From contig JBHLNZ010000068.1 of assembly GCA_048941015.1 (NCBI GenBank), forward strand, positions 1-15,254: a stretch of DNA of 15,254 bases. The letters run 5' to 3'. The position numbers and the translations under genes are program-made. This document shows positions 1-15,254 of this stretch, in pieces. Below the pieces are notes generated by a model that was not told the origin of the DNA, did not search any database, and saw nothing but the letters and a program-made list of their open reading frames with translations. Origin of the DNA: Promethearchaeota archaeon. GTDB lineage: Archaea > Asgardarchaeota > Lokiarchaeia > Sigyniarchaeales > SOKP01. Every line of letters begins with the position of its first letter. Within the stretch, counting starts at the first letter, position 1.

Positions 1-581
1 TCTTCAGTGACTGGAACTTCATTTGGGTCAACTAAACCATATTGCTCACTACTACAGGCAACTTGTACACTTTCTAAACCATCATCAAACCTTCTGGCTG
101 CCTCAAAAATTTTTAATGTACCAACAATATTATTATTGCTGACTCTTACTGGCTCTCTAAAAGAGGTCGGTATAAATGACTCTGCAGCAAGATGAAAAAC
201 GGCATTTGGTCGTATTTCTTCAAATACCTGTAGAATTCTTTCTGCACTTGTAATATCTGCTTCATGTAAGTGGATCTTACCTCTCAAATGTTCGATATTT
301 TCATGCATAGGAACAGCATGACGACGTATAGTTCCATGTACTTCGCATCCTAAATCTATTAATTGTTCTGCTAAATGGCTACCTGCAAATCCACTAATCC
401 CAGTAATTAGAATTCTCTTTCCTTTCCAAAACTTTTCATTAGGTAAAGCAGATTTTTGATCCTTGAATCCTTTTAAGTATGATTCAATGTTCTCTGGGGT
501 AATAATATACCCTTGCTCTTCAAGTTCTTTTACTCTTACGTTATCCTCAATAACATCTTCGATAGGTATCAGATCAACCAT
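1..581 (-). CDS. GDP-mannose 4,6-dehydratase-like extended SDR (NAD(P)-dependent epimerase/dehydratase), 3' end runs off the window
   Basis: Not in the ORF track; translated by hand from ATG at 581: MVDLIPIEDV...FWKGKRILITGISGFAGSHLAEQL...HEADIT...RPNAVFHLAAESFIPTSFREP...NIVGTLKIFEAAR...VACSSEQYG...VPVTE. It has the Rossmann TGxxGxxG motif, HLAAxS and SSE, as in the Gmd/Rmd family. The frame is open to position 1. Confidence 0.85.
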   Translation of the reverse strand, partial: MVDLIPIEDVIEDNVRVKELEEQGYIITPENIESYLKGFKDQKSALPNEKFWKGKRILITGISGFAGSHLAEQLIDLGCEVHGTIRRHAVPMHENIEHLRGKIHLHEADITSAERILQVFEEIRPNAVFHLAAESFIPTSFREPVRVSNNNIVGTLKIFEAARRFDDGLESVQVACSSEQYGLVDPNEVPVTE

Positions 582-735
582 AGTATACTTAAATTATAAT
601 ATTGAATAGATTTTTAATTTAATTATTAAAATTACGATTGTTTTTTAATAGTTTAATCTTAAATTATTTCAAGATTATTTCTGGATATTATAAAAACAAA
701 AAATAAAATAAATTGAAGGATTTTAATTACGTAAA

Positions 736-1923
736 ATGAAGAATATGAAAAAAGTTTTTTTATTATCACCTTTGGCATTAGAAAACGGCCGAGGAGGAGA
801 AATTTCATCGATGGAATTAGCAACAGGCTTGAATAAGTTATATAATGTTACATTTATGGACACAAATATCTTAATTGGAAAGAAATCTTTATCTAATAAT
901 GCTATAAGGAAAAAACTTATTAATCTCAAGAAAAAAGGGAGAATGATATTTGCAACATTCAGTTTTCATGGAAAGACATTTACTTTTCCATATCCCTCTG
1001 AGCTTTTAAGATTATATAGGGAGATAAAACAAAATGATATAATTTATTCTTCTTATCTTGACGTAAAATTAAGTATACTTATAATATTTTTCAGTGTTAT
1101 TCACAGGAAAGGAAAATTTATTATTGGGTATAGAAAACCACCTTATAGTGAGAAAGTTTTATCGCTTTATAATTTAAAGTATAGATTATCAATTCTTTTA
1201 TTTTCTATGTTTAAAAAAAATATAGTTCACCATGCTTTATCTTCATATTCTAAAAGTTTTTTGGATAATTTTTATGATCCAAATTCAGTTATTCATATTA
1301 CCCATGGAATTGATCTTGATAAATATAAGGGTAATGAATTGACGCATAAGAAACATGAAGTTTTAAATTTCGTATTTATAGGATATCTTGATAGCATTGA
1401 TAAAGGCGTTGATGTTTTATTAGAAGCTATAAATGAGTTAATTGAGGAGAATAAAAATCTTAAAATATTTTTTGAATTTTGTGGAATGGGTCCATTAGTT
1501 AAAGAAGTAGAAGAATTAGCAAATAAATATCCTGATTATGTTCGATTTAACGGATATATAAGTAATGAGGAAGTCGATAAACATTATAAAAAGAATGATG
1601 TGTTCTTATTTACATCAAGAAGAGAAACCTTACCTAGAACCATTATGGAAGCATTAGCGGGGGGATTAGTCATCTTAAGTAGTAAAACAATTGGTTCAAT
1701 TGAATTACTTAAAGGACAAAAATTTGCATATTTCTTAAAAGAACTTACTCCTCTTACAATAAAAGAAACAATAATTAAGATATACAATTTATGGGATACA
1801 AATTTTGAGCGATTTAATCAACTTCAAATTAAAGCAAAAGAATTTGTGTTTAAAAATTACTCTTTTGAAAAAGAATTGAATGAATTTAAGTTAGTTATTG
1901 ATAGGGGTACTTTTAAAAAGTGA
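736..1923 (+). CDS. Glycosyltransferase family 4 (GT-B, retaining)
   Basis: N-terminal GRGGE loop, HGID, FIGYL..KG.D.L, and the C-terminal E-x7-E motif (ETLPRTIME-ALAGG) typical of Glycos_transf_1. The start could be the second ATG at 745. Confidence 0.9.
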   Translation: MKNMKKVFLLSPLALENGRGGEISSMELATGLNKLYNVTFMDTNILIGKKSLSNNAIRKKLINLKKKGRMIFATFSFHGKTFTFPYPSELLRLYREIKQNDIIYSSYLDVKLSILIIFFSVIHRKGKFIIGYRKPPYSEKVLSLYNLKYRLSILLFSMFKKNIVHHALSSYSKSFLDNFYDPNSVIHITHGIDLDKYKGNELTHKKHEVLNFVFIGYLDSIDKGVDVLLEAINELIEENKNLKIFFEFCGMGPLVKEVEELANKYPDYVRFNGYISNEEVDKHYKKNDVFLFTSRRETLPRTIMEALAGGLVILSSKTIGSIELLKGQKFAYFLKELTPLTIKETIIKIYNLWDTNFERFNQLQIKAKEFVFKNYSFEKELNEFKLVIDRGTFKK

Positions 1924-1982
1924 TTTATTTCAAAAATTACCTCTGATTTTTTCTTCTAATTAAGTAAAAAAGGAATTGAAGT

Positions 1983-4412
1983 TCAGTGTGTTAAAAGCCA
2001 TTTCATAATAGCTACGTATTTCTGAACATATACTTTATATGAAAAAAAATTTATTGCCCAATTGGATAGATCTCGTCGATTAATTGCTAAATAGTTATTG
2101 ATAAAAGTTTTTAATTTTGATAAAACTTCATTATCGTCATAAATATCATTTAAAACAATACCGTAATCTGTTTTTACTAACATTTCGGAGAAATTTGCTA
2201 TTCCAATTCCAGTGATGACTGGTAAACCACAACAAAGATATTCGCCGAATTTTCCAGGAGCTGCGACGTTATTCATTGGATGGTTATCTCTTAATATAAT
2301 CCCTAAATCTGCGGCATTAAGATAATTGGGAATTTTTTCATTAGGGACAGAATATCTTATTATCAGTTCATCTTGAATAATATTATGTTTTTTTAAAAAA
2401 TTATTTAAAATATCTTTGTCCGATTCTCTAGTAATGATAATAAATTTAATACTGTTTTCTATTTTTTTAATTAGATTGTAAATTTCCAAGGTTCTTGATA
2501 TCTTTTGCCAGCTGAAGTAAACACTTCCAACATAGATCATAACAAAAGCAGTCTTTAAACCAAGTTTTTCTCTCATTTGCATTCTTAGAGATGGATTAAA
2601 GTAAAACTTATTTGAATCGCAACCTGTTGTTAAAGTACTAATCTTTGCTTTATCTATTGAGTCTCTTGAAATGTACAAATCTTTTAAATTCTCAGTTACA
2701 CATAATATATGGTCTGCTTTCTTTAAACTAGATTTATACCTTTCTAAAATGTAATTTTGATTTTTTAATATATTCGAGTAAAATTTTTTTTTGTAAGGAT
2801 GAGTTTCAAGATATTGAAATTCGGATTCAATATCCCCCTCACTTTCTATAATATATTTGAATCTCCGTGGAAAAATTATTTTTAATTTTTCAAAAATGAA
2901 CGTCCCCCTTTTTCTAACCTGGACTATTACCATCTTATTTCTAAGAATTTGATATAAAAAGAACAGAAAAATTATTGCTCTGTCCAAAAATTTTATAGAG
3001 GGGAGCATAATAAACTCATTACCCTTATATTTTGGAGGTAAGTTTAAAAAATCCTTTATACTAACAGTTGTAAATAAATAAATTGGTAAATCAAATTTTC
3101 TCGCTTCTAAAACCCAACCCTTATAAAAATGTAGATGAGCACTTAAACCTCTTGGAGCGAAATAATAAATTTTTCGGTTTTTCCATTTTTTATCTTTTTT
3201 ATTATTTATTTTCTTTAAAAAATAGAAAAAGTGAAAAGGAATTATAATATTTACCAAAAACTCAATGTAAATATAAAATATCAATTTAATAAGAAAAATA
3301 AACTTATATTTTACTAGACCCGATTGATTGATTGTAGAATTAAAAAAAATTAATTTACGGATCTTTTTGAGATATATATATAGTAAACAAGCAATTCCGA
3401 TTATAAACAAAGCTAATCGTGCTAGAAGAAAAATCGGAAAAATTACTAAATAAGCTGAAATGAAAAATAAAATTAAAAATTTTAAAATATTCACTTTTCT
3501 TTTTTGGAAGGAATAAATCAAAAAATTTTCTGTCCAAATCATCTTTTGGCGGATAAATTCCTTTAAACTGCTTGAATAATCAACAAATATCCTATGATTA
3601 TAGTCTACATTTCTATAGGTTTTAAATCCTTTTGAAAAAATATCCTCACCCATTGATTTATCAGTAGCATACTTTTTATCTTCAGAAAAGAATTTAATTT
3701 CCTTGATTACATCATAGTTTACCACGGAGGTTTGACCTGACATAATTTTTCTTTTTTGATATCTGCTAAATTTATATTTGAAGTCTGAATTTCTATCAAA
3801 CTGCAAATAATTTATAAAATCGTTGCTTTGCTGGGTTTCTAAGGGTCTAGCGCCTCCAGCTATAACATTTTCGTTCAAATTAGTGATTGGATAAATCATT
3901 CTTAAAAGAATTTCATCATTAATGTAGGTATCAGCATCAATGAAATAGACAAGCCCATCCTTAATATGATCTATGCATTGGTTAATTGCCTTGACTTTTC
4001 CTAAGGAAGGTCTTTCAGAACCACCTTTTTGGTGTAAAATGATAAAATTATCATATTTTTTAAATGAATTTGCTATTTCAATTGTACGTTTGTTACCCCC
4101 TGCATTGACTATCGCTCTTACTTTAGGGTAGGTAAGATTTTTTATGGATTCTAAACATCTTTTAAACAATTCTCCCTCTTTCCATGCTGGTACAAGAAAA
4201 TTTACAAGAGGAGTATACTTGAGATCCTTTAAAGCGATCGTTTCTGGATCTCTATGAATGTTATAAGCTTTAGCATATCGTCTGTCCTTTAATAAAAAAA
4301 TTAGTAAATGAATTATTATTACTACACTAATGATAGTAATAATTCCATAAATCGATTCCAAGAAAATTAATATAGAATTAAAAAAGATAATAATTTGATA
4401 AAATAAATTCAT
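1983..4412 (-). CDS. Membrane-bound GT2 glycosyltransferase fused in frame to a GT4 glycosyltransferase
   Basis: N-terminal TM segment(s), then VPAWKE, the DxD motif FIDAD, ATD (TED-like), QKMIW (QxxRW-like) and further TM helices. These are followed by a GT-B domain (ADHILCVT, YVGS, YLNAADLG, PGKFGEYLCCGLPVI). ATG at 4412 is preferred over the TTG at 4499. See the finding on the junction. Confidence 0.8.
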   Translation of the reverse strand: MNLFYQIIIFFNSILIFLESIYGIITIISVVIIIHLLIFLLKDRRYAKAYNIHRDPETIALKDLKYTPLVNFLVPAWKEGELFKRCLESIKNLTYPKVRAIVNAGGNKRTIEIANSFKKYDNFIILHQKGGSERPSLGKVKAINQCIDHIKDGLVYFIDADTYINDEILLRMIYPITNLNENVIAGGARPLETQQSNDFINYLQFDRNSDFKYKFSRYQKRKIMSGQTSVVNYDVIKEIKFFSEDKKYATDKSMGEDIFSKGFKTYRNVDYNHRIFVDYSSSLKEFIRQKMIWTENFLIYSFQKRKVNILKFLILFFISAYLVIFPIFLLARLALFIIGIACLLYIYLKKIRKLIFFNSTINQSGLVKYKFIFLIKLIFYIYIEFLVNIIIPFHFFYFLKKINNKKDKKWKNRKIYYFAPRGLSAHLHFYKGWVLEARKFDLPIYLFTTVSIKDFLNLPPKYKGNEFIMLPSIKFLDRAIIFLFFLYQILRNKMVIVQVRKRGTFIFEKLKIIFPRRFKYIIESEGDIESEFQYLETHPYKKKFYSNILKNQNYILERYKSSLKKADHILCVTENLKDLYISRDSIDKAKISTLTTGCDSNKFYFNPSLRMQMREKLGLKTAFVMIYVGSVYFSWQKISRTLEIYNLIKKIENSIKFIIITRESDKDILNNFLKKHNIIQDELIIRYSVPNEKIPNYLNAADLGIILRDNHPMNNVAAPGKFGEYLCCGLPVITGIGIANFSEMLVKTDYGIVLNDIYDDNEVLSKLKTFINNYLAINRRDLSNWAINFFSYKVYVQKYVAIMKWLLTH

Positions 4413-4580
4413 ACTTAATATCCAAAGTTTACATTTTATTAAATCTATTATGTATTTTATAGAAAAATAGATTAAATTTAAAGTTGATAGAGAAAACAAT
4501 AAAAAGTGGTATAGATGCGTATTAGAAAAATGAGAATCAACTTATTAATCATTTCTAAGTAAATTTATATTGAGTTCTAA

Positions 4581-5693
4581 TCATTTGTCAATTTTTTCTA
4601 ATAAAATTTTAATTAACCTCTCTCCTATTTTGTTAGTTGTACAATATTTTTTAAATAACCTATAAGCGTTTTCTGAAATCTCGTATCTTAATCTTTTATT
4701 ATTGATTAATTTTAAAATTGCATCTGCTAAAGATTTAGAATTCCCAGGATCACATAAAATAATATCTTTGCCTTCTGTGAATAACTCTCTTACAGCAGCA
4801 CTTTCAGCAGAGATCATAGGAATTTTCATAGCCATTCCATCAAACAATTTATTTGGTATAACTAAATCTACTTTGAAAAAAGCCCCAAAAATTCCAAGAC
4901 CAATATCACAATTTGCAATTATTTTTGCAACCTCTTTGACTGGAACGAAATCAAGAAATTTTACATTTTTCAGATTTAATCTTTTCACTAATTCTTTATC
5001 TTTCTCATAAGTTATTCCTCCTCCCAGTAGGAGTAGTGAAAGATTTTTTTGTTCTTTAAGAGATGCTATTGCCTTAATTATATAGTTTACTCCGGATGCT
5101 TGGATGAAACTACCCCAGAATCCAACTAATATGTTATGATTATCTGATTTCTCGCATTCTATCGGATAAAAATAGTCTTCTCGACTCCCTACATATATCT
5201 TTCTAAATTTCTTTAACGGAATTTTAAATGTTTCACGAAAATATTTAATATGAGAAGCTGTATCTAATACTACAAAATCAGATAGATGACATAATAAAAA
5301 TTCCAATACATAAAAATACAAGTAATACAATATCTTCGGAATAAATCTCTTTCTATTTTTCAGGCCATAAACATTATAATAAGTTAATAGCTTAGAAATA
5401 TGAACATCATGGATTAAGGGAACTCCTTTTAAAAACGCTAATAATTTTGAAAACATAAAGGAGATTGAATTCCTAAATGAATAATAGATTATAGCATCAT
5501 ATTTGAGATTTAAAAATCTTTTAAAATTCTTAATTAAAAATCTAATCAAAGATTTATTGCGATATTTATTGGTATTAAACTCTATTACATTTATATTATG
5601 ATTACGAAGGCCCTGAATGAAATTATGGTTTCTGATATAATCTGGATTATAATTTCCAATATACAAAATATTTTTAAGTGATTTATTTGTCAT
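4581..5693 (-). CDS. Glycosyltransferase family 4
   Basis: GFWGSF..GV.YI, CDIGLG, IPNKLFDGMAMKIPMI and SLADAILKL are GT-B C-terminal motifs. ATG at 5693 (the ORF track starts one codon earlier, at TTG). Confidence 0.9.
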   Translation of the reverse strand: MTNKSLKNILYIGNYNPDYIRNHNFIQGLRNHNINVIEFNTNKYRNKSLIRFLIKNFKRFLNLKYDAIIYYSFRNSISFMFSKLLAFLKGVPLIHDVHISKLLTYYNVYGLKNRKRFIPKILYYLYFYVLEFLLCHLSDFVVLDTASHIKYFRETFKIPLKKFRKIYVGSREDYFYPIECEKSDNHNILVGFWGSFIQASGVNYIIKAIASLKEQKNLSLLLLGGGITYEKDKELVKRLNLKNVKFLDFVPVKEVAKIIANCDIGLGIFGAFFKVDLVIPNKLFDGMAMKIPMISAESAAVRELFTEGKDIILCDPGNSKSLADAILKLINNKRLRYEISENAYRLFKKYCTTNKIGERLIKILLEKIDK

Positions 5694-5874
5694 CAAAATC
5701 GTAATTTTGGTAAAAATGGTTTATAATATTTCAAGTGATAATTCTGAATTTAAATTTTTTTAACATTATATAGCATTATTGAAAATAGTAAAGCGATTAT
5801 TAGACAAATTAATAAACATAACATTATTTATTAACAAAACTAACAAGTTCTTCTTAAAATCTAGAAGTTGTACT

Positions 5875-7518
5875 ATGTCTGAGCCTACTAAGAATAACGT
5901 AGATGAAGAATTAAAGCAAAACCAGAGAACTTTAGCTAAAAGTTCAATTTTTTCATTATTATATAAATATGGGGTTCAAATTTTCTCTATTTTTACTTCG
6001 ATTTTAATGGCAAGGATAGTCTCTCAAGCAGAGTGGGGATTATTAATATTAGCTATTTCTTATACTGGAATTTTCAGTCAAATTATCTCCTATCTTCCAC
6101 CAGGATTGGATTCAACTCTGAATTATTATATCCCTCGTTATATTGGTCTTAATAAATATAATTCCCTTAAATCGCTCATTAAAAATATGTTTTTTATTCG
6201 AGTAGTAATCTTAATTCCAGCATGTGTTATTCTTTTATTATTTATATTTTTCTTATCGAACATTTTCTTCATAAATTTGAATGAATCTATATATCTTCTT
6301 TATATTATGTTTCCAATTGTCATTGTATCTGGAATAAACCAAATATTAGCTGGTATAAATCGAGGGTTCAATATGTTCAAATTAATGTTTCAATTATTAG
6401 TTCTTAGTAATGCAATTTATCTAGGGGGTCTAATAGTCTTCTTTTTATTTCTTAGAAATATTGGAATTGAACCCATAGCCATACTTTATACAATTTCAAT
6501 CATTATTCCTTTTCTTATAAATCTCCTGCTAATGATAATCAAGTTAATTAAATTAAAAAAAAAAAGCAACGATTTAAATTCATCTTTTAGAGCTGATCTA
6601 AAAAAGATAATAAGTTATGGGACTCCAGTAACCCTGACAGTATCTATGTATTATCTTTGGGAACAAATTCAAATTCAAGCAATAGGAACATTCCAACCAA
6701 CAGAGGTAGTTACGGGTTTTTCTATTGCAAAAAATTACAGCCAGAACTCTATCAATGCTGTCACAGGTTTTAATGAGCCTTTGATTACTTCGGTTTCTAA
6801 ACTACATTCACAGAAGAACTTCAATGAAATTAATAAAATTTATAATACAATAAATAAGTTTTCAGTATTTATTCTTTTCATATTAACGGGAACTTTATAC
6901 TTTCTAGCAGATTTCTTTTTAAAATTTATTTATGGTGAAAGTTATCTCATTTTTTCAATTTATTTAAGAATTCTGTTATTTGCTTTTATGTTTCGAATTT
7001 TCTTAAATATGTTTGAGACTTATGTGCTTGCTACGAATAAAGTAAAACTTCTTCCTATTTACAAATCTATTGCTATAATAATATTAGCTATTCTATTCTT
7101 TTTTGGTTTAATGTATTATGGTATTTTAGGCGCTCTTGTAGGATTATTATTAGGAAATATTGCTCTATTTGTTATGTATCTCTTTCTAACATTAAAATTC
7201 TTATCAATTAAATTAAAAAGTATCTTTCTCCAATATTGCACTTTTTTTATCTCTTTTGCAATAACTTTATTTCTTCAATTACTCTTTTTTCAAAATTTTG
7301 AAGATCAAATCTTTATTTCATTAAATTTAGGGCTTTTTCAAAATTTACATCTTTTAGCAATAATTATTTTTTTAGGAATTTACTTATGTCTAAACATTAT
7401 TTTCCGAATATTTACTAAAAAAGATATCGAAGATGTGGAATCATTCTTTAGAAAAGATACAATGTCTCATCGATTTATTAAAAAAGTTCTTAATATTACA
7501 AAAAAAGTAGTTAGATAA
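5875..7518 (+). CDS. Wzx/RfbX-like oligosaccharide flippase (MOP superfamily)
   Basis: About 14 hydrophobic segments. The N-terminal pattern 'LAKSSIFSLL...SILMARIVSQAEWG' matches the ARxLGxxxYG-type motif, and mid-protein 'IISYG.P...VVTGFSIA...YGESY' also fits. It lies among glycosyltransferases. ATG at 5875 (MSEPTK) is preferred over the TTG at 5779. Confidence 0.85.
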   Translation: MSEPTKNNVDEELKQNQRTLAKSSIFSLLYKYGVQIFSIFTSILMARIVSQAEWGLLILAISYTGIFSQIISYLPPGLDSTLNYYIPRYIGLNKYNSLKSLIKNMFFIRVVILIPACVILLLFIFFLSNIFFINLNESIYLLYIMFPIVIVSGINQILAGINRGFNMFKLMFQLLVLSNAIYLGGLIVFFLFLRNIGIEPIAILYTISIIIPFLINLLLMIIKLIKLKKKSNDLNSSFRADLKKIISYGTPVTLTVSMYYLWEQIQIQAIGTFQPTEVVTGFSIAKNYSQNSINAVTGFNEPLITSVSKLHSQKNFNEINKIYNTINKFSVFILFILTGTLYFLADFFLKFIYGESYLIFSIYLRILLFAFMFRIFLNMFETYVLATNKVKLLPIYKSIAIIILAILFFFGLMYYGILGALVGLLLGNIALFVMYLFLTLKFLSIKLKSIFLQYCTFFISFAITLFLQLLFFQNFEDQIFISLNLGLFQNLHLLAIIIFLGIYLCLNIIFRIFTKKDIEDVESFFRKDTMSHRFIKKVLNITKKVVR

Positions 7519-7528
7519 GTAAATTTTT

Positions 7529-8152
7529 TTATAAATTTTTGAATTTTTGAATTACTGAATTTGGATCTTTAGCTTTTAATATTGCACTTGAGCTTGTTAA
7601 AATGTCTACTTTTTTCATCTTTTTTATAGTTTCCAAATTTACTCCTCCATCAACATCAATAATGAAAGGATATTTTTTTTTTAACTTTGATAATTGATAT
7701 ATTTTCTGTAAAGTCTCGGAAATGAATTTCTGCCCAGAAAATCCTGGTTCAACTCCTAAAATTAACACAACATCAAGTTTAGGTAGAAGATATTCAATTT
7801 GAGCAATTATTGTCTTTGGATTAAGAACTATTCCAACTAATTTACCCGAGGATTTTACTCTATTTATGATTTGAATTATGCCTCTTTCTATTTCAAAATG
7901 AAATAAAAAAACATCGATATAGTCAATGATCTCATCAATATATTTCAAGGGATCAGAAACCATCAAATGGACTATAATAGGTATGTTAAAATTTGCCTTT
8001 ATTTCTTTAAAAACATTTAAATTAAGACATTTATTCTCGACAAATTTGCCATCCATTACATCAACATGAAAATAATCGAAATTCTTTAAGTTTTTCAACG
8101 GTTCAATCGAGAAATCATTGGTTGCATGAATTGAAATAGCTACTTTTTTCAT
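7529..8152 (-). CDS. rpe: Ribulose-phosphate 3-epimerase
   Basis: HVDVMDGKFV, VHLMV, V.PGFSGQKF and VDGGVN are signature motifs, with the metal ligands His/Asp/His/Asp present. Length of 207 aa fits. Confidence 0.9.
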   Translation of the reverse strand: MKKVAISIHATNDFSIEPLKNLKNFDYFHVDVMDGKFVENKCLNLNVFKEIKANFNIPIIVHLMVSDPLKYIDEIIDYIDVFLFHFEIERGIIQIINRVKSSGKLVGIVLNPKTIIAQIEYLLPKLDVVLILGVEPGFSGQKFISETLQKIYQLSKLKKKYPFIIDVDGGVNLETIKKMKKVDILTSSSAILKAKDPNSVIQKFKNL

Positions 8153-8270
8153 GATTGTTCCATTTAATTAAAATGAATGAAAATTTTAATATCATTTCTT
8201 ATTTACTTCCTTAATTTTTATTAGCCAGTGATCATTAATTATACTATTCAAAGCTTAAAATTGTTGATTT

Positions 8271-9311
8271 ATGGATAAAATTTTGGTAACTGGTGCCGCT
8301 GGATTTATAGGGTCTCACCTTATTGACTATTGCATTAAAAAAGAATTTGAAATATACGCGTTAGATCGCCCAAATGTCTCAATGAGAAACTTAATGCATT
8401 ATACCAATAATAAAGAATATTTTTTAAAAAAAGACAAGAACAAAATATTTGGTGAAAAAATTAAAATCTCAAGTAATAAACCAAATTTATCGTTTATAGA
8501 ATGTGATTTAAAGAATAGTAAATTATTAGAAAAAATCATAAGCAATCTTAGACCAAAATTTATATTTCATTTCGGCGCTCAACCATATATCTTACCATCC
8601 TGGGAAGACCCTCGCAATACTATTGAAATTAACGTTATTGGCACAATTAACATTTTCGAACCATTGAAAAATTACAAGATAGACGCAAAAGTAATTTTTG
8701 CAGGAACCTCGGCAGAATTTGGTAGTACTGCTAATATCGGACGTCCATTAAAAGAGGATGATCCTTTATTGGCAATTCATCCTTATGGAATAAGTAAGTT
8801 AGCTTCAGAGCTATTAGGAAGACAGTATTTTCTCAATTTTGGAGTTAAAACCCTAAATTTACGGTTCTTTAATTTAACTGGAACACGAAGAGTTAATGAT
8901 GCAGCATCTGATTTTATAAGAAAAATCGCTCAAATTAATCTCGATTTAGCTGAACCTGTTATCGAAGTTGGAAATCTCGAACCATATCGAGACATATTAG
9001 ACGTAGAAGATGCTGTAGCAGGAATCTGGTTAGTAGCAACTAAAGGCCGCCCAGGTGAGGTGTATCATATCTGTTCAGGTAAAAAAGTTCAAATTCGGGA
9101 GCTTCTAAAGATTGCTTTAAGCTTAACTGAAAAAAAAATAGAAGTTATTGAAAATGTCCCCGAAAAACTTAGAACTACTGATGAGGACATTATTATTGGA
9201 GATAATTCTAAGGCAACATCAGAATTAGGTTGGAAAGTGACTAAGAATCTTAAAGAAACTCTTACAGATATGTTTAATTATTGGATTGACTATTATCAAT
9301 CGAATTTATAG
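8271..9311 (+). CDS. GDP-4-keto-6-deoxy-D-mannose reductase (Rmd)-like / GDP-mannose 4,6-dehydratase family extended SDR
   Basis: TGAAGFIG, PYGISK (YxxxK), RFFNLTG, VGNLEPYRDILDV, GEVYHICSG and ELGWK. The overall pattern resembles Rmd/Gmd family proteins. The exact activity cannot be determined from sequence. Confidence 0.8.
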   Translation: MDKILVTGAAGFIGSHLIDYCIKKEFEIYALDRPNVSMRNLMHYTNNKEYFLKKDKNKIFGEKIKISSNKPNLSFIECDLKNSKLLEKIISNLRPKFIFHFGAQPYILPSWEDPRNTIEINVIGTINIFEPLKNYKIDAKVIFAGTSAEFGSTANIGRPLKEDDPLLAIHPYGISKLASELLGRQYFLNFGVKTLNLRFFNLTGTRRVNDAASDFIRKIAQINLDLAEPVIEVGNLEPYRDILDVEDAVAGIWLVATKGRPGEVYHICSGKKVQIRELLKIALSLTEKKIEVIENVPEKLRTTDEDIIIGDNSKATSELGWKVTKNLKETLTDMFNYWIDYYQSNL

Positions 9312-9348
9312 TAAAGAAAAATAGTTTTAAAATTTATATTATCTTATA

Positions 9349-12300
9349 TTAAGCTACTTTTTTAAAACTAAAACTTATTGTTTTAATTTTATCTTCACTG
9401 AGTGCTGTATCACAATAAGGGCATTTTACTTTCTGTTTCTTTTTAAACCTTGCTAATATATTATCTTTTAATGATGCTGAACATTCTTTATTTGAACAGA
9501 TATTTAGAACACCATACACATATTTATCTTGTTTCGTGATTAATTCATTACCAATTTCAAGAGTTTTTGCAGTGACTTTTTCTGAAATTGATTCCTTAAA
9601 TTTTCCTAAATAATCTTTCAAATAATCAGCATCAGTACCTAAGAATAATAATATTTCTTCGCCGACTTTATACTTATTGTTTTTGCGTGAATATTGAATA
9701 TTACGTATTAAATCGTTTACAACGCGTTCTGCTAATAATTCATCATCAAGAGAGATGTCAAGATATAAATTGTAATACTTTGATTCTGCTTTAAGTAACC
9801 CTTCTTTTTTAGCTATGGATTTAACTACTTCTAATTCTTTTACATTTCCCATTTGTTTAATCAATTCAGGAAATTTTATTTCAGGCATCTCTTCTTTCTC
9901 TTCGATTATTATTTTCTTATTTGGCCATCTTAATCGTATTTTATTCTCATCCTTTAATGCTCGTATAGTTTCTATTATGTCTCTTGTGAATTTCATTTGC
10001 TCTTCTAACCGATCATCAATTAAATTATCATTATACACAGGATAATCTTGAAGGTGAATACTTTCAGTTTCATTACGACCCATTGATTTTAAGTATTGTT
10101 TAAACATTTTAAGATAAATTTCTTCAGTTAACATTGGATTTATTGGAGACAACATTAGCAAAAATTGAAATAAAATTTCGAACAAAAGCGCCATAACTTG
10201 ATATTTATTGGGATCTTCAGAATAGAGATCTAACTTTTCTCGATTCAACATTATGTACCATCGACTAACATCATTCACAATAAAGTCTCTTAATACTCCT
10301 GGAATCCAAGGTAATTCATACTTATCTGAATGCTCGATCACCCTCTTAATTACAGAATGCAATCGTGAAACTAACCACTTATCTATTTTATCTAGCTTAT
10401 TCAAATTTAATTTGTGCTCAGAAGGATTGAATTTCGCTAGAGAAAATTTCTCGTTTGCATATACGTACACATTCCAAATAGTATTAATAGTTTTGTATGT
10501 ATCAGCATATTCCTTAACATTGAAATTTAAGTCTCGACCTGGTTGGGTGGCTCCTATAGAATAGAATCTAAACGTTTCGATGCCTTTTATATTGGAATAG
10601 CTTTTATTTCCTTGAAGTTCCTCGAGAGTTCCGTTTATTAGATCTTCTGGTTCAAATGAAGTTCCCTTAGATTTACTCATTTTTAATTTTTCTCGCAAAA
10701 ACCATCCATGCATATAACACGCATTATAATTTTTGCGTTTGGATGAAACCATAGCACTACATAACAAACTGTTAAACCATCCTCTTATTTGATCTTTTCC
10801 TTCAATTATGAAATCAGCTGGGACCCAGCTGTCATAATGACTCTTTCCATCATATACTTCTTGAGCAGCCCACATTACAGAACCAGAATCTAACCATACA
10901 TCTAAAATATCTGGAATTCTTTTCTTTGTACCTTTATTGCATTTTTTACATTTCCAAGTAACTTGATCTATCCAAGGACGATGCAGATCATCCGGACATT
11001 CTCCTGCAATTTCTTTCAACTCTTGTCCAGATCCTATAACCGTAGTATCTTTACAATTTTCATTATCACAGATCCAAACACTTAAAGGAATTCCCCAATA
11101 ACGCTGTCGTGAAATACACCAGTCCTTTAATGTACTCAACCAACTCTTAAACCATCGATTTCCTGCCCAATCAGGTATCCAATAAATCTCCTCATTTTTC
11201 TTTAGTAAATCTTCGATTAAATCTTCTGTTTTAAAAAACCATTGATTTGTTGCTCTATAAACTAACTTTGAATCGCATCTCCAGCAATGGGCATATTCAT
11301 GTTCAATCTCACTGGTATGTATAAGAGTTCCCTTTTTCTTCAAGAGTTCTAAAATTTCTTGGTTAGCGTCAAAAACATGTTTACCCGCAAATTTTCCCGC
11401 TTCTTTTTTATAAATTCCCCTTATATTAACAGGATTAAAGATAGGAATATTATTTGCAACTCCTACTTCAAAATCTTCAGGTCCATGTCCAGGTGCAGTA
11501 TGAACTAATCCTACCCCTTCTGAAGCAGAAACATATTCTTCAGATAATATAATAGTATGAACTGTATCGCTTTGCCTTGCAAGTTCTTTTTGATATGGAA
11601 CTTCTTCTAAAAGGGGATGTTCGTACTTCATCCCTTTTAAATCTTCACCGTAATATTCTTTGATTAACTTGTTTTTATAACCTAATTCACCAGATATTAG
11701 AAATGGTGCTGCTGCTTTTGACATAATCCAATTCTCTTTTAGATCTTCGATCCTAAATTTACCATATTCTGCAAATGGATTTGCCATTATTGCCTCATTA
11801 GCCACTAAAGTCCAAGGAGTTGTGGTCCAAATTATAAAATATGTGTCTTTTTCTTCAGTTGATTTCAATTTTAAAAATAAACTGGTATCTTTAATATTTT
11901 TATATTCGTGTTCGTGTTTAGCTAAAGCTGTAGCGCATCTTGGACAACAATTTAATGGGCGATAAAATCTGTACAATAAACCATTTTCCCAAGCTTTTTT
12001 CAATGTCCACCAAATTCCCTCAATATAACTGTTCTTTAAAGATATGTAAGGATTATCCCAATCCCAGAAATAACAACCAAGTCTTTTAAATTGATCATTC
12101 ATAAGTTTTAAGTTTTTCAAAGCAAACTCTCTGCAACTTTTAATGAACTTATCTTCACCAAAATTAATAATCTCTTGTTTATTTTTTATCCCAAGCTCTT
12201 TTTCCATCTGAACTTCAATAGGTAACCCATGAGTATCATAACCTGGCGTGTCAGTAACTCTAAATCCTCTCATTCGTTTGTATTGAATAAGATAATCTTT

Positions 12301-12498
12301 TAAAATTTTATTCCATGCAGTACCTAGATGAATTGAGCCAGTCGTATATGGAGGTCCGTCTATAAACCTCCAAGATTCTTTTCCTTGTTCATTTTTCCTT
12401 ATTAAGGAATAGATCTCTTCTTTTTTCCAGAATTCTAAAATTCTCTGTTCTAATTCTGTTAAATTTAAGCGTTTATTTAATGCTTCCACGAGACTCAT
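9349..12498 (-). CDS. ileS: Isoleucine--tRNA ligase (archaeal type)
   Basis: DGPPY..G.IHLGT (HIGH variant), GYDTHGLPIE, WTTTPWTL, VHTAPGHG.ED (editing site), DWCISRQRYWG, EGKDQIRGWF and KMSKS. Length 1049 aa. Confidence 0.97.
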   Translation of the reverse strand: MSLVEALNKRLNLTELEQRILEFWKKEEIYSLIRKNEQGKESWRFIDGPPYTTGSIHLGTAWNKILKDYLIQYKRMRGFRVTDTPGYDTHGLPIEVQMEKELGIKNKQEIINFGEDKFIKSCREFALKNLKLMNDQFKRLGCYFWDWDNPYISLKNSYIEGIWWTLKKAWENGLLYRFYRPLNCCPRCATALAKHEHEYKNIKDTSLFLKLKSTEEKDTYFIIWTTTPWTLVANEAIMANPFAEYGKFRIEDLKENWIMSKAAAPFLISGELGYKNKLIKEYYGEDLKGMKYEHPLLEEVPYQKELARQSDTVHTIILSEEYVSASEGVGLVHTAPGHGPEDFEVGVANNIPIFNPVNIRGIYKKEAGKFAGKHVFDANQEILELLKKKGTLIHTSEIEHEYAHCWRCDSKLVYRATNQWFFKTEDLIEDLLKKNEEIYWIPDWAGNRWFKSWLSTLKDWCISRQRYWGIPLSVWICDNENCKDTTVIGSGQELKEIAGECPDDLHRPWIDQVTWKCKKCNKGTKKRIPDILDVWLDSGSVMWAAQEVYDGKSHYDSWVPADFIIEGKDQIRGWFNSLLCSAMVSSKRKNYNACYMHGWFLREKLKMSKSKGTSFEPEDLINGTLEELQGNKSYSNIKGIETFRFYSIGATQPGRDLNFNVKEYADTYKTINTIWNVYVYANEKFSLAKFNPSEHKLNLNKLDKIDKWLVSRLHSVIKRVIEHSDKYELPWIPGVLRDFIVNDVSRWYIMLNREKLDLYSEDPNKYQVMALLFEILFQFLLMLSPINPMLTEEIYLKMFKQYLKSMGRNETESIHLQDYPVYNDNLIDDRLEEQMKFTRDIIETIRALKDENKIRLRWPNKKIIIEEKEEMPEIKFPELIKQMGNVKELEVVKSIAKKEGLLKAESKYYNLYLDISLDDELLAERVVNDLIRNIQYSRKNNKYKVGEEILLFLGTDADYLKDYLGKFKESISEKVTAKTLEIGNELITKQDKYVYGVLNICSNKECSASLKDNILARFKKKQKVKCPYCDTALSEDKIKTISFSFKKVA

Positions 12499-12520
12499 CT
12501 TGTCAAATATGTGAATGTAA

Positions 12521-12530
12521 ATTATAATAA
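12521..12530 (-). promoter_or_regulatory. Putative archaeal TATA box for ileS (possibly leaderless transcript)
   Basis: TTATTATAAT on the minus strand, 23-32 nt upstream of the ileS ATG, which is the spacing expected for an archaeal promoter. Weak evidence because the region is very AT-rich. Confidence 0.3.
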
Positions 12531-12628
12531 ATACAGACTAAAAAATTTAACCAATTCTTTAAATAAGGGACATTTTTAATCAATTAAGTTAGAAAATTAT
12601 AAAAAGATCTTAAATAACAAATACTTTT

Positions 12629-14347
12629 TTAATCAGGTATTAAATTAGGAGGAGGAGTTTTCAAACAAAATCCACACTTGCCAAAAGACTTAATTGTTTG
12701 TTCCCAGCAATGCTTATGATAGGACCTTTCACAATAGGGACAATCAACATGACATGTATCTCCATCTGATCCGGCTATTTTTAAACTACACGTAGGACAA
12801 TCTATTTTATGGCAAATTACACATGAGACGACTGAGACTTCAAATATCTTCTTTGAAATTAAATTAAATAAATCTACAAGATAACTAAAAGGAGTCCACT
12901 CTTCAAAAAAATCCTTAAACGAGCTTTGAAGATCATTTTTTATTTTTTCATGGGCTTCAATTTCGAATTCATTAATAATCTTAATAGAAGGCATCTTCAT
13001 GGGATATTCTGGAGGTAAATTAATCTGGAATTGAAAGGTCAAATCCTGTGTTTTCATTTTACCTTTCATTTCAATGTTTAAAATTTCTTCAGAAGGGAGA
13101 TATTCAATATTTTGATAATGTTCTTTTAATAACTCTATTTCAAAATCAATTCTTGAATTCTTATCAACTAACCAAGCAATTTCTCTTATAAGTTCGACAG
13201 ATTCAGATTCATTTTCTCTCCAATTTTTGTAAGCATCAAGTTCTGTGATTGGGATTCTAATTAATTCCTGAAGCTCTGATGCTAATTCTACTTTAGGAGG
13301 CATAGGATAAGTACCTAAATTAACCTCTAATGAATATTCTCTAAATCCATAAGTAACCAGATGAACTGATAAATGAGTTATGTCATTAGGATTAAGATCA
13401 CATTGATATTCTCCAAGAATCTTCTTAGACTCTAATTCAATTTCTTTTATGAAAAGTAATTTATTCTCTAATTCATGGATAATGTCAACAATATGCGGAG
13501 GATTTGTACTTGACCATTTCCTCAATGTTTCTAATGATTGATCTGGATCACCTAATAAATTTGATACTTCTTTCGGGAAAGAGATTATAGGTTTTTCAGG
13601 ATAATTTTGAAAATTGATATAAATCATGAAAGTCTTCGAAACCGTTATAGTGAGATAAATGGTTAATTCTACTTTATTTTCTCTTTCTTGGTCGTAAGCA
13701 TATTCTTGTTGAATTAATCCCAACTCGGTTTTTAAAGTTAAGTTTAATTCTTCTTGAACATCGAATAAATCTTCTTGTAAAGGAGTTTCGCTTTCTGGAA
13801 CATTGATATTATTTTCAGAAGCATCTTCAATCAATGCATCATATTTTTCTGGCGCAGTTGTGAATTTTTCATAATCGAAGTCTGGAGGATAAGCATTCAA
13901 ATCTGGAGTAATATACTCTTCAGTTTGTGGTAAAGATTGTTCAACCTGTTTTGGTTCTTGATTAAGAATCTCTTTAGAATCATCTGAATCTTTAGAAATT
14001 TCAGGAGTTAGAATTACAGGCTCTTCTTCAACTTTTTTATTGATTTCTAGAGCTTGCTTTATCTTTACTTTGAGTTCATTCACGACATCAACGACTCGAG
14101 ATTCAGATGTCCATTTTGTTAAAGATTCTAAATCGATCTCACCTAATAGATTCTTAATTTCATCATGAAATAACAATTTTGGTGGAGTATTTGGAAAATT
14201 CTCATCAAATTTTATTTCTAATTCATACTTTTTATCAGCGCTTTCATATGCATATCCATATAAATGAGCAATATTTCCTGATACCATCCAAAATGAAAAG
14301 TTGGCCGCAAGTTTCTGTGCTTCCTTTAAGAGCCTTTGTTTATTCAT
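12629..14347 (-). CDS. Multi-UEV/RWD (E2-like fold x4) plus C-terminal RING finger protein; candidate ubiquitin E3 ligase/scaffold
   Basis: Four ~100-aa repeats, each with the E2/RWD (F/Y)PxxP(P) turn (FPNTPP, YPEKP, YPMPP, YPMKMP) and a downstream W...V(D/E)hh helix. The N-terminus has an E2-like RLLKE helix, residues ~101-200 form an acidic linker, and the C-terminus reads CVIC-x4-CPTC...CPYC-x4-HKHC-W...CGFC. Confidence 0.75.
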   Translation of the reverse strand: MNKQRLLKEAQKLAANFSFWMVSGNIAHLYGYAYESADKKYELEIKFDENFPNTPPKLLFHDEIKNLLGEIDLESLTKWTSESRVVDVVNELKVKIKQALEINKKVEEEPVILTPEISKDSDDSKEILNQEPKQVEQSLPQTEEYITPDLNAYPPDFDYEKFTTAPEKYDALIEDASENNINVPESETPLQEDLFDVQEELNLTLKTELGLIQQEYAYDQERENKVELTIYLTITVSKTFMIYINFQNYPEKPIISFPKEVSNLLGDPDQSLETLRKWSSTNPPHIVDIIHELENKLLFIKEIELESKKILGEYQCDLNPNDITHLSVHLVTYGFREYSLEVNLGTYPMPPKVELASELQELIRIPITELDAYKNWRENESESVELIREIAWLVDKNSRIDFEIELLKEHYQNIEYLPSEEILNIEMKGKMKTQDLTFQFQINLPPEYPMKMPSIKIINEFEIEAHEKIKNDLQSSFKDFFEEWTPFSYLVDLFNLISKKIFEVSVVSCVICHKIDCPTCSLKIAGSDGDTCHVDCPYCERSYHKHCWEQTIKSFGKCGFCLKTPPPNLIPD

Positions 14348-14475
14348 AGAGTTTAATTCTTTATAATTATGTACCTTATTAAAAACATTAAATTACATTC
14401 TTAAAAATATTTTTAAATATTGAAAGAACAATATACAAATAGCAGGTTTGTATCAATTATAACCAATAAAGGAAT

Positions 14476-15254
14476 ATGGTTTTGAATTTTCGTGAAAATT
14501 TTAAAAGAAATATTGTGATTCTTAGTAGTTTTATCATTTTCAGTATCATCTATATCAGTTTTTTACTAAAATTAAATGAAATCCAATACGGCTTTTATGT
14601 TCCCCCTTTACTAGTTCTTGGATTTGTTTTGTTCATTTTTGGTTTTTTCTATTTCTTTTTTTATTTAAATCATAAAAAAAATGAGTTCCTAACCTTTCAC
14701 ATAAAGCTGATGAATGAATTTACATTTATGCTGATTATTTTCATTTTAATGTTAATCTTTTTTTTTATACCTTCTATAACTTTCTCAGATATGATAATCG
14801 GCTGGAATGAGATACCTATTTTAAATTATATAAGGGCAGGAATTTACACAATCGGAAGTGGTTTTATTCCAGGATATTGTCTATTAAACATCTTCCTTCC
14901 TAATAACGATTTACATAAAAGATTTGAGGTTGAACCCTTTATTATCAAACTTGTATTATATCCCCTCATTTCATACACATTCCTAGGAAGTTTCACATTG
15001 ATTGTTGATCAAATAGGATTATCGAGAGGATTATATCAATATGTTCTCATTATTGCTATAATTATATTATTTTCTATCAATTTGTTTATCCAAAAACGGC
15101 GCGGTGGTAAAATTTTGTCTATTAAAAAGACAGAGATGAAAATTTCAAAATATACAATATTTTTGCTTTTTCTAATATTTTCAATATTGCTAATATGTTT
15201 AGGAGTAAGAACAAATACCCTCTTTTTAGTTGATAATGACAATTATCGAGTATT
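14476..15254 (+). CDS. Polytopic membrane protein, partial (possibly GT-C-fold/DUF1616-like)
   Basis: Not in the ORF track; translated by hand from ATG 14476 and open to the window end (~259 codons): MVLNFRENFKRNIVILSSFIIFSIIYISFLL...IIGWNEIPILNYIRAGIYTIGSGFIPGYCLL...LYPLISYTFLG...DNDNYRV. About 7 hydrophobic segments, preceded by AAAGGA. Confidence 0.75.
   Translation, partial: MVLNFRENFKRNIVILSSFIIFSIIYISFLLKLNEIQYGFYVPPLLVLGFVLFIFGFFYFFFYLNHKKNEFLTFHIKLMNEFTFMLIIFILMLIFFFIPSITFSDMIIGWNEIPILNYIRAGIYTIGSGFIPGYCLLNIFLPNNDLHKRFEVEPFIIKLVLYPLISYTFLGSFTLIVDQIGLSRGLYQYVLIIAIIILFSINLFIQKRRGGKILSIKKTEMKISKYTIFLLFLIFSILLICLGVRTNTLFLVDNDNYRV

Follow-up and report, generated by a model that had tools for sequence, protein, structure and literature searches.

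The 15,254-nucleotide stretch of DNA analyzed here (the window; contig JBHLNZ010000068.1 of assembly GCA_048941015.1, positions 1 to 15,254 of the forward strand, from a Promethearchaeota archaeon of the class Lokiarchaeia) encodes a 572-residue protein, P0001, most likely an archaeal ubiquitin ligase that has not been described before and whose predicted layout is like that of eukaryotic FANCL. We found that P0001 contains four domains with the fold of ubiquitin-conjugating enzymes (E2s), all of them lacking catalytic residues, followed by a C-terminal zinc finger that models as a RING. Judging from the sequence and the structural models, P0001 probably acts as an E3 ligase of the RING type, for ubiquitin or a ubiquitin-like protein, with a noncatalytic pseudo-E2 body.

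The gene is a single open reading frame on the minus strand (12629..14347; 572 codons plus stop), with its ATG at 14347 and its stop codon at 12629-12631. AlphaFold2 run on a 55-sequence family alignment returns a model with a mean predicted local distance difference test score (pLDDT) of 81.8, in which the helix/beta-meander/helix arrangement is seen four times (residues ∼1-108, 200-298, 299-408, and 410-505; pLDDT 82-97), the finger is folded with confidence, and a disordered stretch (108-199) separates units 1 and 2. The modeled layout is thus one unit, a disordered acidic linker of ∼90 residues, and then three further units. The first-pass annotation, made from the DNA letters alone, had described four tandem E2-like units of the UBC/UEV/RWD fold; the four units and their fold are borne out, as are the motifs it quoted, which are found in the translation as written, but the units are not contiguous, because the linker intervenes after the first. 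A search of NCBIfam with P0001 gave no meaningful match. The sequencing runs listed for the gene are of metagenomic DNA, from sediment and other sources, with no RNA run among them.

Unit 1 (residues 1-108; 14024..14347, minus strand) is the most E2-like of the four, and is modeled with high confidence (pLDDT 93-97) as a UEV-like pseudo-E2. Pfam UQ_con matches P0001 at 42 bits (cut-off 27) in two stretches, the better at residues 38-94, and VIA, an exhaustive structural search that is independent of Foldseek, superposes unit 1 on a Plasmodium E2 (Z 11.4-11.9) and on Ube2V1 (Z 10.4), with root-mean-square deviations (rmsd) of 2.2-3.1 Å. Unit 2 (residues 200-298; 13454..13750, minus strand; pLDDT 82-93) is UBC/UEV-like, as indicated by profile comparison with hhalign, and lies where FANCL has its ELF domain. 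Unit 3 (residues 299-395; 13163..13453, minus strand), whose C-terminal helix extends to about residue 408, forms the first half of a double-RWD-like pair, as judged by superposition of units 3 and 4 together, and unit 4 (residues 396-505; 12833..13162, minus strand) is RWD-like, with a Pfam RWD match of 30.9 bits at 402-497 (cut-off 22.8) and VIA matches at Z 10-11.6 to E2s, an RWD domain of the SEA complex, RWDD1, and the RWD domains of RNF25 and GCN2. The Pfam check suggested for the repeats therefore gives both UQ_con and RWD above their cut-offs, with UBC_like and Prok-RING_1 also seen below threshold. Taken together, the superpositions of units 1 and 4 with solved domains of the E2, UEV, and RWD types cover ∼100 residues at Z 10-12 and rmsd 2.2-3.0 Å. 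P250, P348, and P449 are invariant in the family alignment, and the (Y/F)PxxP turn that is one of the marks of the UBC fold is present.

Comparison of unit profiles cut out of the 55-sequence alignment shows that the internal repeat is real, because all six pairs come out as homologous (hhalign probabilities of 95.5-99.4%, pairwise E values of 1e-8 to 5e-21). Units 1, 2, and 3 are mutually closest (unit 2 matches unit 1 at 99.2% and unit 3 at 99.4%), with unit 4 diverging most. No cysteine is present at the E2 active-site position in any of the four units; the residue at the equivalent position of unit 1 (position 72) is variable across the family, with glutamine the commonest. P0001 has 12 cysteines, of which 11 lie within residues 509-561, and the only one outside the finger, C316, is in an early strand and is absent from several homologues. 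The HPN motif of active E2s is not present in P0001 either, and since both this motif and the active-site cysteine are missing, all four units are catalytically dead E2 folds.

In the models, the C-terminal finger (residues 506-572; 12632..12832, minus strand) is a cross-brace RING and not a zinc ribbon, with PHD fingers ranking far lower, in agreement with what had been proposed from the letters. It carries 12 conserved ligands; C509, C512, C539, H544, C547, C558, and C561 are invariant in the family, and C517, C520, and C536 are nearly so. A finger-only model (residues 500-572, from a 51-sequence alignment) has a pLDDT of 89.9, and RING or U-box domains head its Foldseek list (Rad18, APIP6, LTN1, Apc11, EL5, RING1B, TRAF6, and RBX1; probability 0.8-1.0), whereas the Pygo PHD reaches a probability of 0.41 and a TM score of 0.35. 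In VIA, run exhaustively against 48,161 chains, essentially all of the top 50 rows are RING/U-box-type domains, led by yeast Ltn1 (Z 7.2) and followed by APIP6 and human LTN1 (6.2), FANCL (5.3), and Apc11 (5.0); PHF7, a PHD that binds UBE2D2, is listed at Z 4.7. A single-sequence search of the PDB with P0001 gives only weak matches (E ≥ 0.03), and the family profile finds Apc11 (E 1.9e-4), Arkadia (5e-4), RNF165, and RCHY1 among PDB sequences, together with Listerin (E 1.7e-3) across its RWD and RING domains; several RINGs and no PHD are among the top 60 matches. Pfam Prok-RING_1 (PF14446) scores 13.1 bits with P0001, below its gathering score of 29.1 bits, and matches nine of the 55 relatives (best E 3.8e-6), and zf-rbx1 matches one of the 55 (E 0.002).

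The finger is predicted to bind three zinc ions. Alignments with RBX1 (E 0.07) and Apc11 (E 1.9e-4) pair all 12 conserved ligands with the ligands of three-zinc-site fingers, and because they align one by one, the first site is probably formed by C509, C512, H544, and C547, the second by C536, C539, C558, and C561, and the third by C517, C520, C532, and H546, with the sites numbered as in RBX1. H513 and H533 are unlikely to be ligands, since tyrosine or phenylalanine is found at these positions in paralogues. No further copies of the finger were found in the host genome. Related fingers (47-66% identity) do occur at the C termini of other Asgard proteins (P0168, P0170, P0178, P0186, P0180, P0169, P0175, and P0181), among them proteins with asparagine-rich repeats (beta-helical and NosD-like by eye) combined with a transmembrane segment and a zinc ribbon, a leucine-rich-repeat protein, and small transmembrane proteins; from their sequences, the proteins of this group look like membrane-anchored RING proteins. 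The occurrence of the finger on such varied targeting modules is what one would expect if it were a shared, E2-recruiting catalytic module.

The linker between units 1 and 2 (residues 109-199; 13751..14023, minus strand) has pLDDT values of 31-51 and a strongly acidic composition, with 26 aspartate or glutamate residues, only 5 lysine or arginine residues, and 10 prolines. It is unconserved except for a short linear motif, EEYITPDLNAYPPDF (residues 143-157; 13877..13921, minus strand), the columns of which are 70-90% conserved in 39 full-length homologues. In another genome, the gene for the full-length orthologue is followed 3 kb downstream by a gene for P0396 (L020:11740-12252, plus strand; also in L021), a stand-alone protein of 170 residues that is paralogous to unit 1 together with the linker. 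P0396 is labeled UQ_con by Pfam, is 60% identical to P0001 residues 21-110, and retains EEYITPDLNAYPPDF after its unit-1-like domain. Because the pair is also found in this stand-alone form, unit 1 and the EEYITPDLNAYPPDF motif appear to constitute a separable module.

The first-pass annotation had noted that Asgard archaea encode ubiquitin, E1, E2, and RING proteins, and that a host without a ubiquitin system would speak against its proposal; the host does possess such a system. The host genome (3.59 Mb, 95% complete) carries on contig C29 (17987-24600; L010, L002) a cluster encoding two ubiquitin-like proteins, an E1 activating enzyme (410 residues; L002:76-1308), an E2 (175 residues; L002:1411-1938), and a JAMM protease (277 residues), such that absence of a ubiquitin system cannot be held against a ligase role. 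One of the two ubiquitin-like proteins (129 residues; L010:1309-1698) has an acidic N-terminal extension and ends in ...STAG, and the other (264 residues) has a hydrophobic, probably membrane-spanning N terminus and a C-terminal ubiquitin-like domain. No RING gene was seen in this cluster. A second stand-alone E2 is encoded on contig C90 (L052:3369-3878), and there are further E1-like genes, including one on contig C89 (L051:5320-6903) for a 527-residue stand-alone E1 with an insertion; a gene for a Gtr1/RagA-like GTPase (L051:8073-9017) is 1.2 kb from it, with genes for a subtilase and a 1200-residue TPR/MIT protein upstream.

P0001 belongs to a conserved family. Full-length homologues (55-80% identity) make up more than 300 clusters formed at 90% identity, and their source names include Lokiarchaeota, Promethearchaeota, 'Hodarchaeota', and Hermod- and Thorarchaeota metagenome-assembled genomes; a few are annotated as 'ubiquitin-conjugating enzyme E2 variant' or 'ubiquitin-protein ligase'. 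When 1.84 billion representatives were searched exhaustively with phmmer, only 134 clusters came back, including forms of ∼350-430 residues without unit 1. Among 301 sampled genomes of the phylum, forms with three or four units and a RING are confined to the window's own (Loki-type) class, where they are present in family f1 (53 of 68 with P0001) and in families f2, f3, and f4; a P0001 query found no multiunit homologue in the 230 sampled Asgard genomes outside this class. A survey across Asgard genomes, as had been proposed, thus reveals a conserved family, but one whose three- and four-unit forms were found in a single class among the genomes sampled. We found no description of the four-pseudo-E2 plus RING architecture in the literature searched, in keeping with the earlier remark that no characterized example in a prokaryote was known. 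Variants of 671-691 residues (P0142 and P0147) have an extra N-terminal RING (a subthreshold zf-RING_2 match) before the pseudo-E2 array and the C-terminal finger. In other metagenomic proteins (P0203 and P0220), an N-terminal longin domain (Fuz_longin_1, subthreshold) is fused to a UBC/BRE-like domain that resembles unit 2.

Shorter relatives are linked to ubiquitin genes. Within the same class as the window, a homologue with three units and a RING is encoded directly upstream of an E1 gene on the same strand. A profile search also shows that proteins of ∼293 residues from another Asgard class, with source names identifying them as Jordarchaeia, match unit 4 and the RING. One of these, P0375 (293 residues), is homologous to P0001 over this region (profile E ∼1e-15, BLASTP 4e-7), has the same order of pseudo-E2 followed by RING, and adjoins genes for ubiquitin, E2, E1, and a JAB protein. 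It differs in having two units (a double RWD) rather than four, and a plain two-zinc C4HC3 RING with a tryptophan four residues after the sixth ligand. We note that the Jordarchaeial ubiquitin cluster also contains a gene (L033:150-872, minus strand) in which an M48/SprT-like metallopeptidase motif is fused to a C-terminal RING.

A plausible mechanism for P0001 as an E3 ligase is that the C-terminal three-zinc RING would recruit a charged E2~ubiquitin, for which the two stand-alone E2s encoded elsewhere in the host genome are candidates, while units 2 to 4 would form a FANCL-like scaffold of one ELF-like domain and a double-RWD-like pair that holds the RING in place and binds the substrate or partner proteins. 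Unit 1, a UEV-like pseudo-E2 on a ∼90-residue acidic disordered tether with a conserved motif, could be a mobile accessory that binds, for instance, ubiquitin, an E2, or a partner, and EEYITPDLNAYPPDF may contribute to such a role. Several observations weigh against this interpretation. High structural scores are not to be expected for a domain of 70 residues, and those of the finger are modest (Z at most 7.2, lowest Foldseek E 8e-3), so that the evidence for the RING fold lies in the uniformity of the match lists. E2-binding RINGs typically have a tryptophan four residues after the ligand equivalent to C547, a proline between the last two cysteines, and an arginine or lysine after the last cysteine; in the P0001 finger, the tryptophan directly follows ligand C547, Gly-Phe lies between the last two cysteines, and a leucine, not a basic 'linchpin' residue, follows C561. 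The C-x2-C-x4-H-x2-C spacing of the finger is also compatible with PHD fingers, and no E1, E2, or JAMM gene is present within ∼7 kb of the four-unit gene in the host genome and 15 related loci. Finally, there are five zf-RING_2 matches elsewhere in the host genome, three of them above the cut-off. With at least three other canonical RING proteins encoded, we reject the idea that P0001 is the sole RING E3 of its host.

Some of these same features would fit a different role, in which P0001 is a noncatalytic scaffold or ubiquitin-binding adaptor and the RING-like finger is only a structural or oligomerization zinc module, for which BRCC45/BRE in the BRISC and BRCA1-A complexes, the kinetochore double-RWD proteins, and the GATOR2/SEA RINGs provide models. 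BRCC45 is among the top whole-model Foldseek matches (6gvw_C, E 3e-6), 11 of the 55 relatives have local Pfam BRE matches near threshold, units 3 and 4 fit the KNL1 double RWD (3.8 Å) better than the FANCL double RWD (7.0 Å), and the structural matches include GATOR2/SEA RINGs as well as the SEA RWD; the atypical E2-contact positions of the finger and the lack of ubiquitin-system neighbors of the four-unit gene are likewise as such a scaffold would have them. However, BRE and the kinetochore RWD proteins have no RING, the best matches of the finger are RINGs of active E3s (Ltn1, APIP6, EL5, Apc11, and RNF4), the shorter relatives stand in E1/E2/ubiquitin clusters at the place usually held by the cluster's E3, and the finger recurs on unrelated targeting modules. 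We thus consider a purely scaffolding function unlikely, although it is the main alternative to a ligase. We regard it as decidedly unlikely that P0001 acts as a UEV-type E2 cofactor, in which one or more pseudo-E2 units would pair with an active E2, orient the acceptor ubiquitin, and set the chain type, as for Mms2/Uev1 with Ubc13, with the RING only raising the local E2 concentration; this would be a specialized version of the ligase interpretation. The similarity of unit 1 to Ube2V1 noted above, its matches to the UEV domains of Vps23/Tsg101 (Z 9.4-10.3), Pfam UEV matches in 7 of the 55 relatives, and the occurrence of unit 1 and the linker motif as a stand-alone gene, as for a separable cofactor, are consistent with this, but the matches are at the level of the fold, and are tied with those to many active E2s.

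It is highly improbable that P0001 has no role in ubiquitin transfer and that its finger works as a PHD-like reader, or as a zinc module for binding nucleic acids or lipids. The C4HC3 order of the ligands, as well as their spacing, would allow it, and there are weak matches in relatives to zf-HC5HC2H (2 of 55), to a Rubicon-homology domain (6 of 55), and to C1_1 (two relatives). Nonetheless, PHD fingers such as that of Pygo stand low in the structural ranking, they are missing from the top PDB-sequence profile matches in which RINGs recur, and the finger is preceded by four folds of the ubiquitin system. We therefore favor the E3 ligase as the role of P0001.

The rest of the window encodes glycosyltransferases, a flippase, sugar epimerases, and an isoleucyl-tRNA synthetase (IleRS), and no ubiquitin-system gene was found in it. 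One of the other genes (1983-4499, minus strand) is an 838-codon open reading frame whose product has an N-terminal glycosyltransferase family 2 (GT2) domain and a C-terminal GT1/GT4-like domain. A scan for sigma-70 promoters and terminators, a model that does not apply to archaea, gave no more hits in the window than in shuffled sequence. The IleRS gene (9349-12498, minus strand) has the four-unit gene immediately upstream on the same strand, and this arrangement is shared by 10 of 15 orthologous loci (L037-L041, L043, L044, and L047-L049), the 15 having 57-76% identity, and by one further locus of the same family (L065, genome G030). In a locus from a different family (L062; 42% identity), the two genes are paired head-to-head. 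The pairing may reflect either inherited gene order or a functional link.

Noncatalytic E2 folds of the RWD/UEV type build eukaryote-specific machines, including those of the FANCL, Listerin, and GCN2 pathways, BRISC, kinetochores, and Mediator, and among the eukaryotic RWD proteins, Ltn1, RNF25, RNF14, and GCN2 are linked to translation quality control. It is tempting to speculate that the Lokiarchaeial (1+3) pseudo-E2 RING proteins and the Jordarchaeial double-RWD-RING proteins are survivors of the lineage that gave rise to the eukaryotic RWD-RING ligases (FANCL, Ltn1, and RNF25-like) and to double-RWD scaffolds (kinetochore and Mediator), and that the IleRS pairing reflects a translation-linked quality control role; taken as a whole, we think this unlikely, although if true, the ELF-DRWD-RING body plan (DRWD denoting the double RWD) would predate eukaryogenesis. 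An origin of the RWD/UEV folds from an archaeal noncatalytic E2 has been proposed, with only a single Asgard RWD-like sequence reported (PMC6601020). In the P0001 family, several dead E2 folds, two of them in a double-RWD-like pair, are already joined in archaea to a RING in the order of FANCL, and with shorter relatives located within ubiquitin operons, the proposal of an archaeal origin becomes experimentally testable with archaeal proteins. If P0001 is an E3, then a large multidomain ligase joins the RING proteins of archaeal ubiquitin cascades, those characterized so far being small (PMC5654768; bioRxiv 10.1101/2023.07.25.550441). The reach of these conclusions is limited by the narrow taxonomic range of the three- and four-unit family.

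The closest solved multidomain matches to the P0001 model are those that the first-pass annotation had named, FANCL, BRCC45/BRE, and Listerin. In a Foldseek search with the whole model, human FANCL is first (7kzp_L, E 1.6e-8, 403 columns), followed by BRCC45/BRE, LTN1/Ltn1, Mediator subunits, CENP-O, and KNL1, and in the ESM Atlas, searched by language-model features, the nearest nonself clusters are FANCL (0.90) and listerin fragments (0.87). The sequence gives no support for placing P0001 in the FANCL, Listerin, or BRE families. For BRE, Pfam has no match in P0001, and the matches in the 11 relatives (25-31 bits, cut-off 25.8) cover only ∼70 of 320 profile positions; with matches that are local and a RING that is present, we consider BRE membership unlikely. 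P0001 nonetheless shares with BRCC45/BRE, KNL1, and CENP-O/P the use of arrays of catalytically dead UBC folds, which in those proteins serve as scaffolds, and its units 3 and 4 superpose on the KNL1 double RWD over 178 residues (Z 10.2); none of these proteins has the RING that P0001 has.

The resemblance to Listerin and to RBX1/APC11 is concentrated at the C-terminal end. As in Listerin/Ltn1, the RING comes immediately after an RWD-like domain, with the family profile match spanning Listerin residues 1489-1764, structure rows in the Atlas aligning P0001 residues 308-572 with listerin, and the Ltn1 RING giving the best structural match to the finger. However, P0001 has neither the N-terminal domain nor the long HEAT/ARM solenoid that define Listerin, and has four UBC-like domains rather than one. 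Like RBX1 and APC11, the finger has an H-x-H-C motif and, inserted after the first ligand pair and before the second, a CxxC...C triad, but it differs in having C-x2-C rather than C-x-H at the second site, a cysteine rather than an aspartate as the last ligand, and no N-terminal strand of the kind that binds cullin or Apc2.

The most extensive likeness is to FANCL, the Fanconi anemia core-complex E3, which consists of an ELF domain, a double RWD, and a C4HC3 RING (PDB 7kzp_L, 9a0j_L, 3k1l, and 3zqs) and acts together with UBE2T on FANCD2/FANCI. In VIA, P0001 residues 206-572 are collinear with residues 2-370 of 7kzp_L (306 residues aligned, Z 9.3), so that the two share one E2-like fold, a double-RWD pair, and a C4HC3-type RING in the same order and over nearly equal lengths. 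Units 3 and 4 align with 176 of 186 residues of the human FANCL DRWD (Z 10.0, with the rmsd of 7.0 Å given above), P0001 298-500 aligns with 3zqs_B 109-291, and natural relatives with three units and a RING, of 350-430 residues, match this plan without the N-terminal module. The differences are substantial. Sequence identity is only 10-13%, and Pfam FANCL_d1, FANCL_d2, FANCL_d3, and FANCL_C have no match in P0001 even at E values up to 10, with FANCL_d1 found in 2 of the 55 relatives at 2e-4, below threshold. The domains are also oriented differently, as indicated by the high whole-chain rmsd (23-28 Å), and P0001 has an additional N-terminal pseudo-E2, the acidic linker, and a probable third zinc site; we know of no Fanconi partners in archaea. 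Because the four units strongly resemble one another, independent internal duplication, and hence convergence with FANCL, is no less probable than inheritance of the whole body plan. In either case, what P0001 is predicted to share with FANCL is its architecture and fold: a run of one E2-like domain, a double-RWD-like pair, and a RING.

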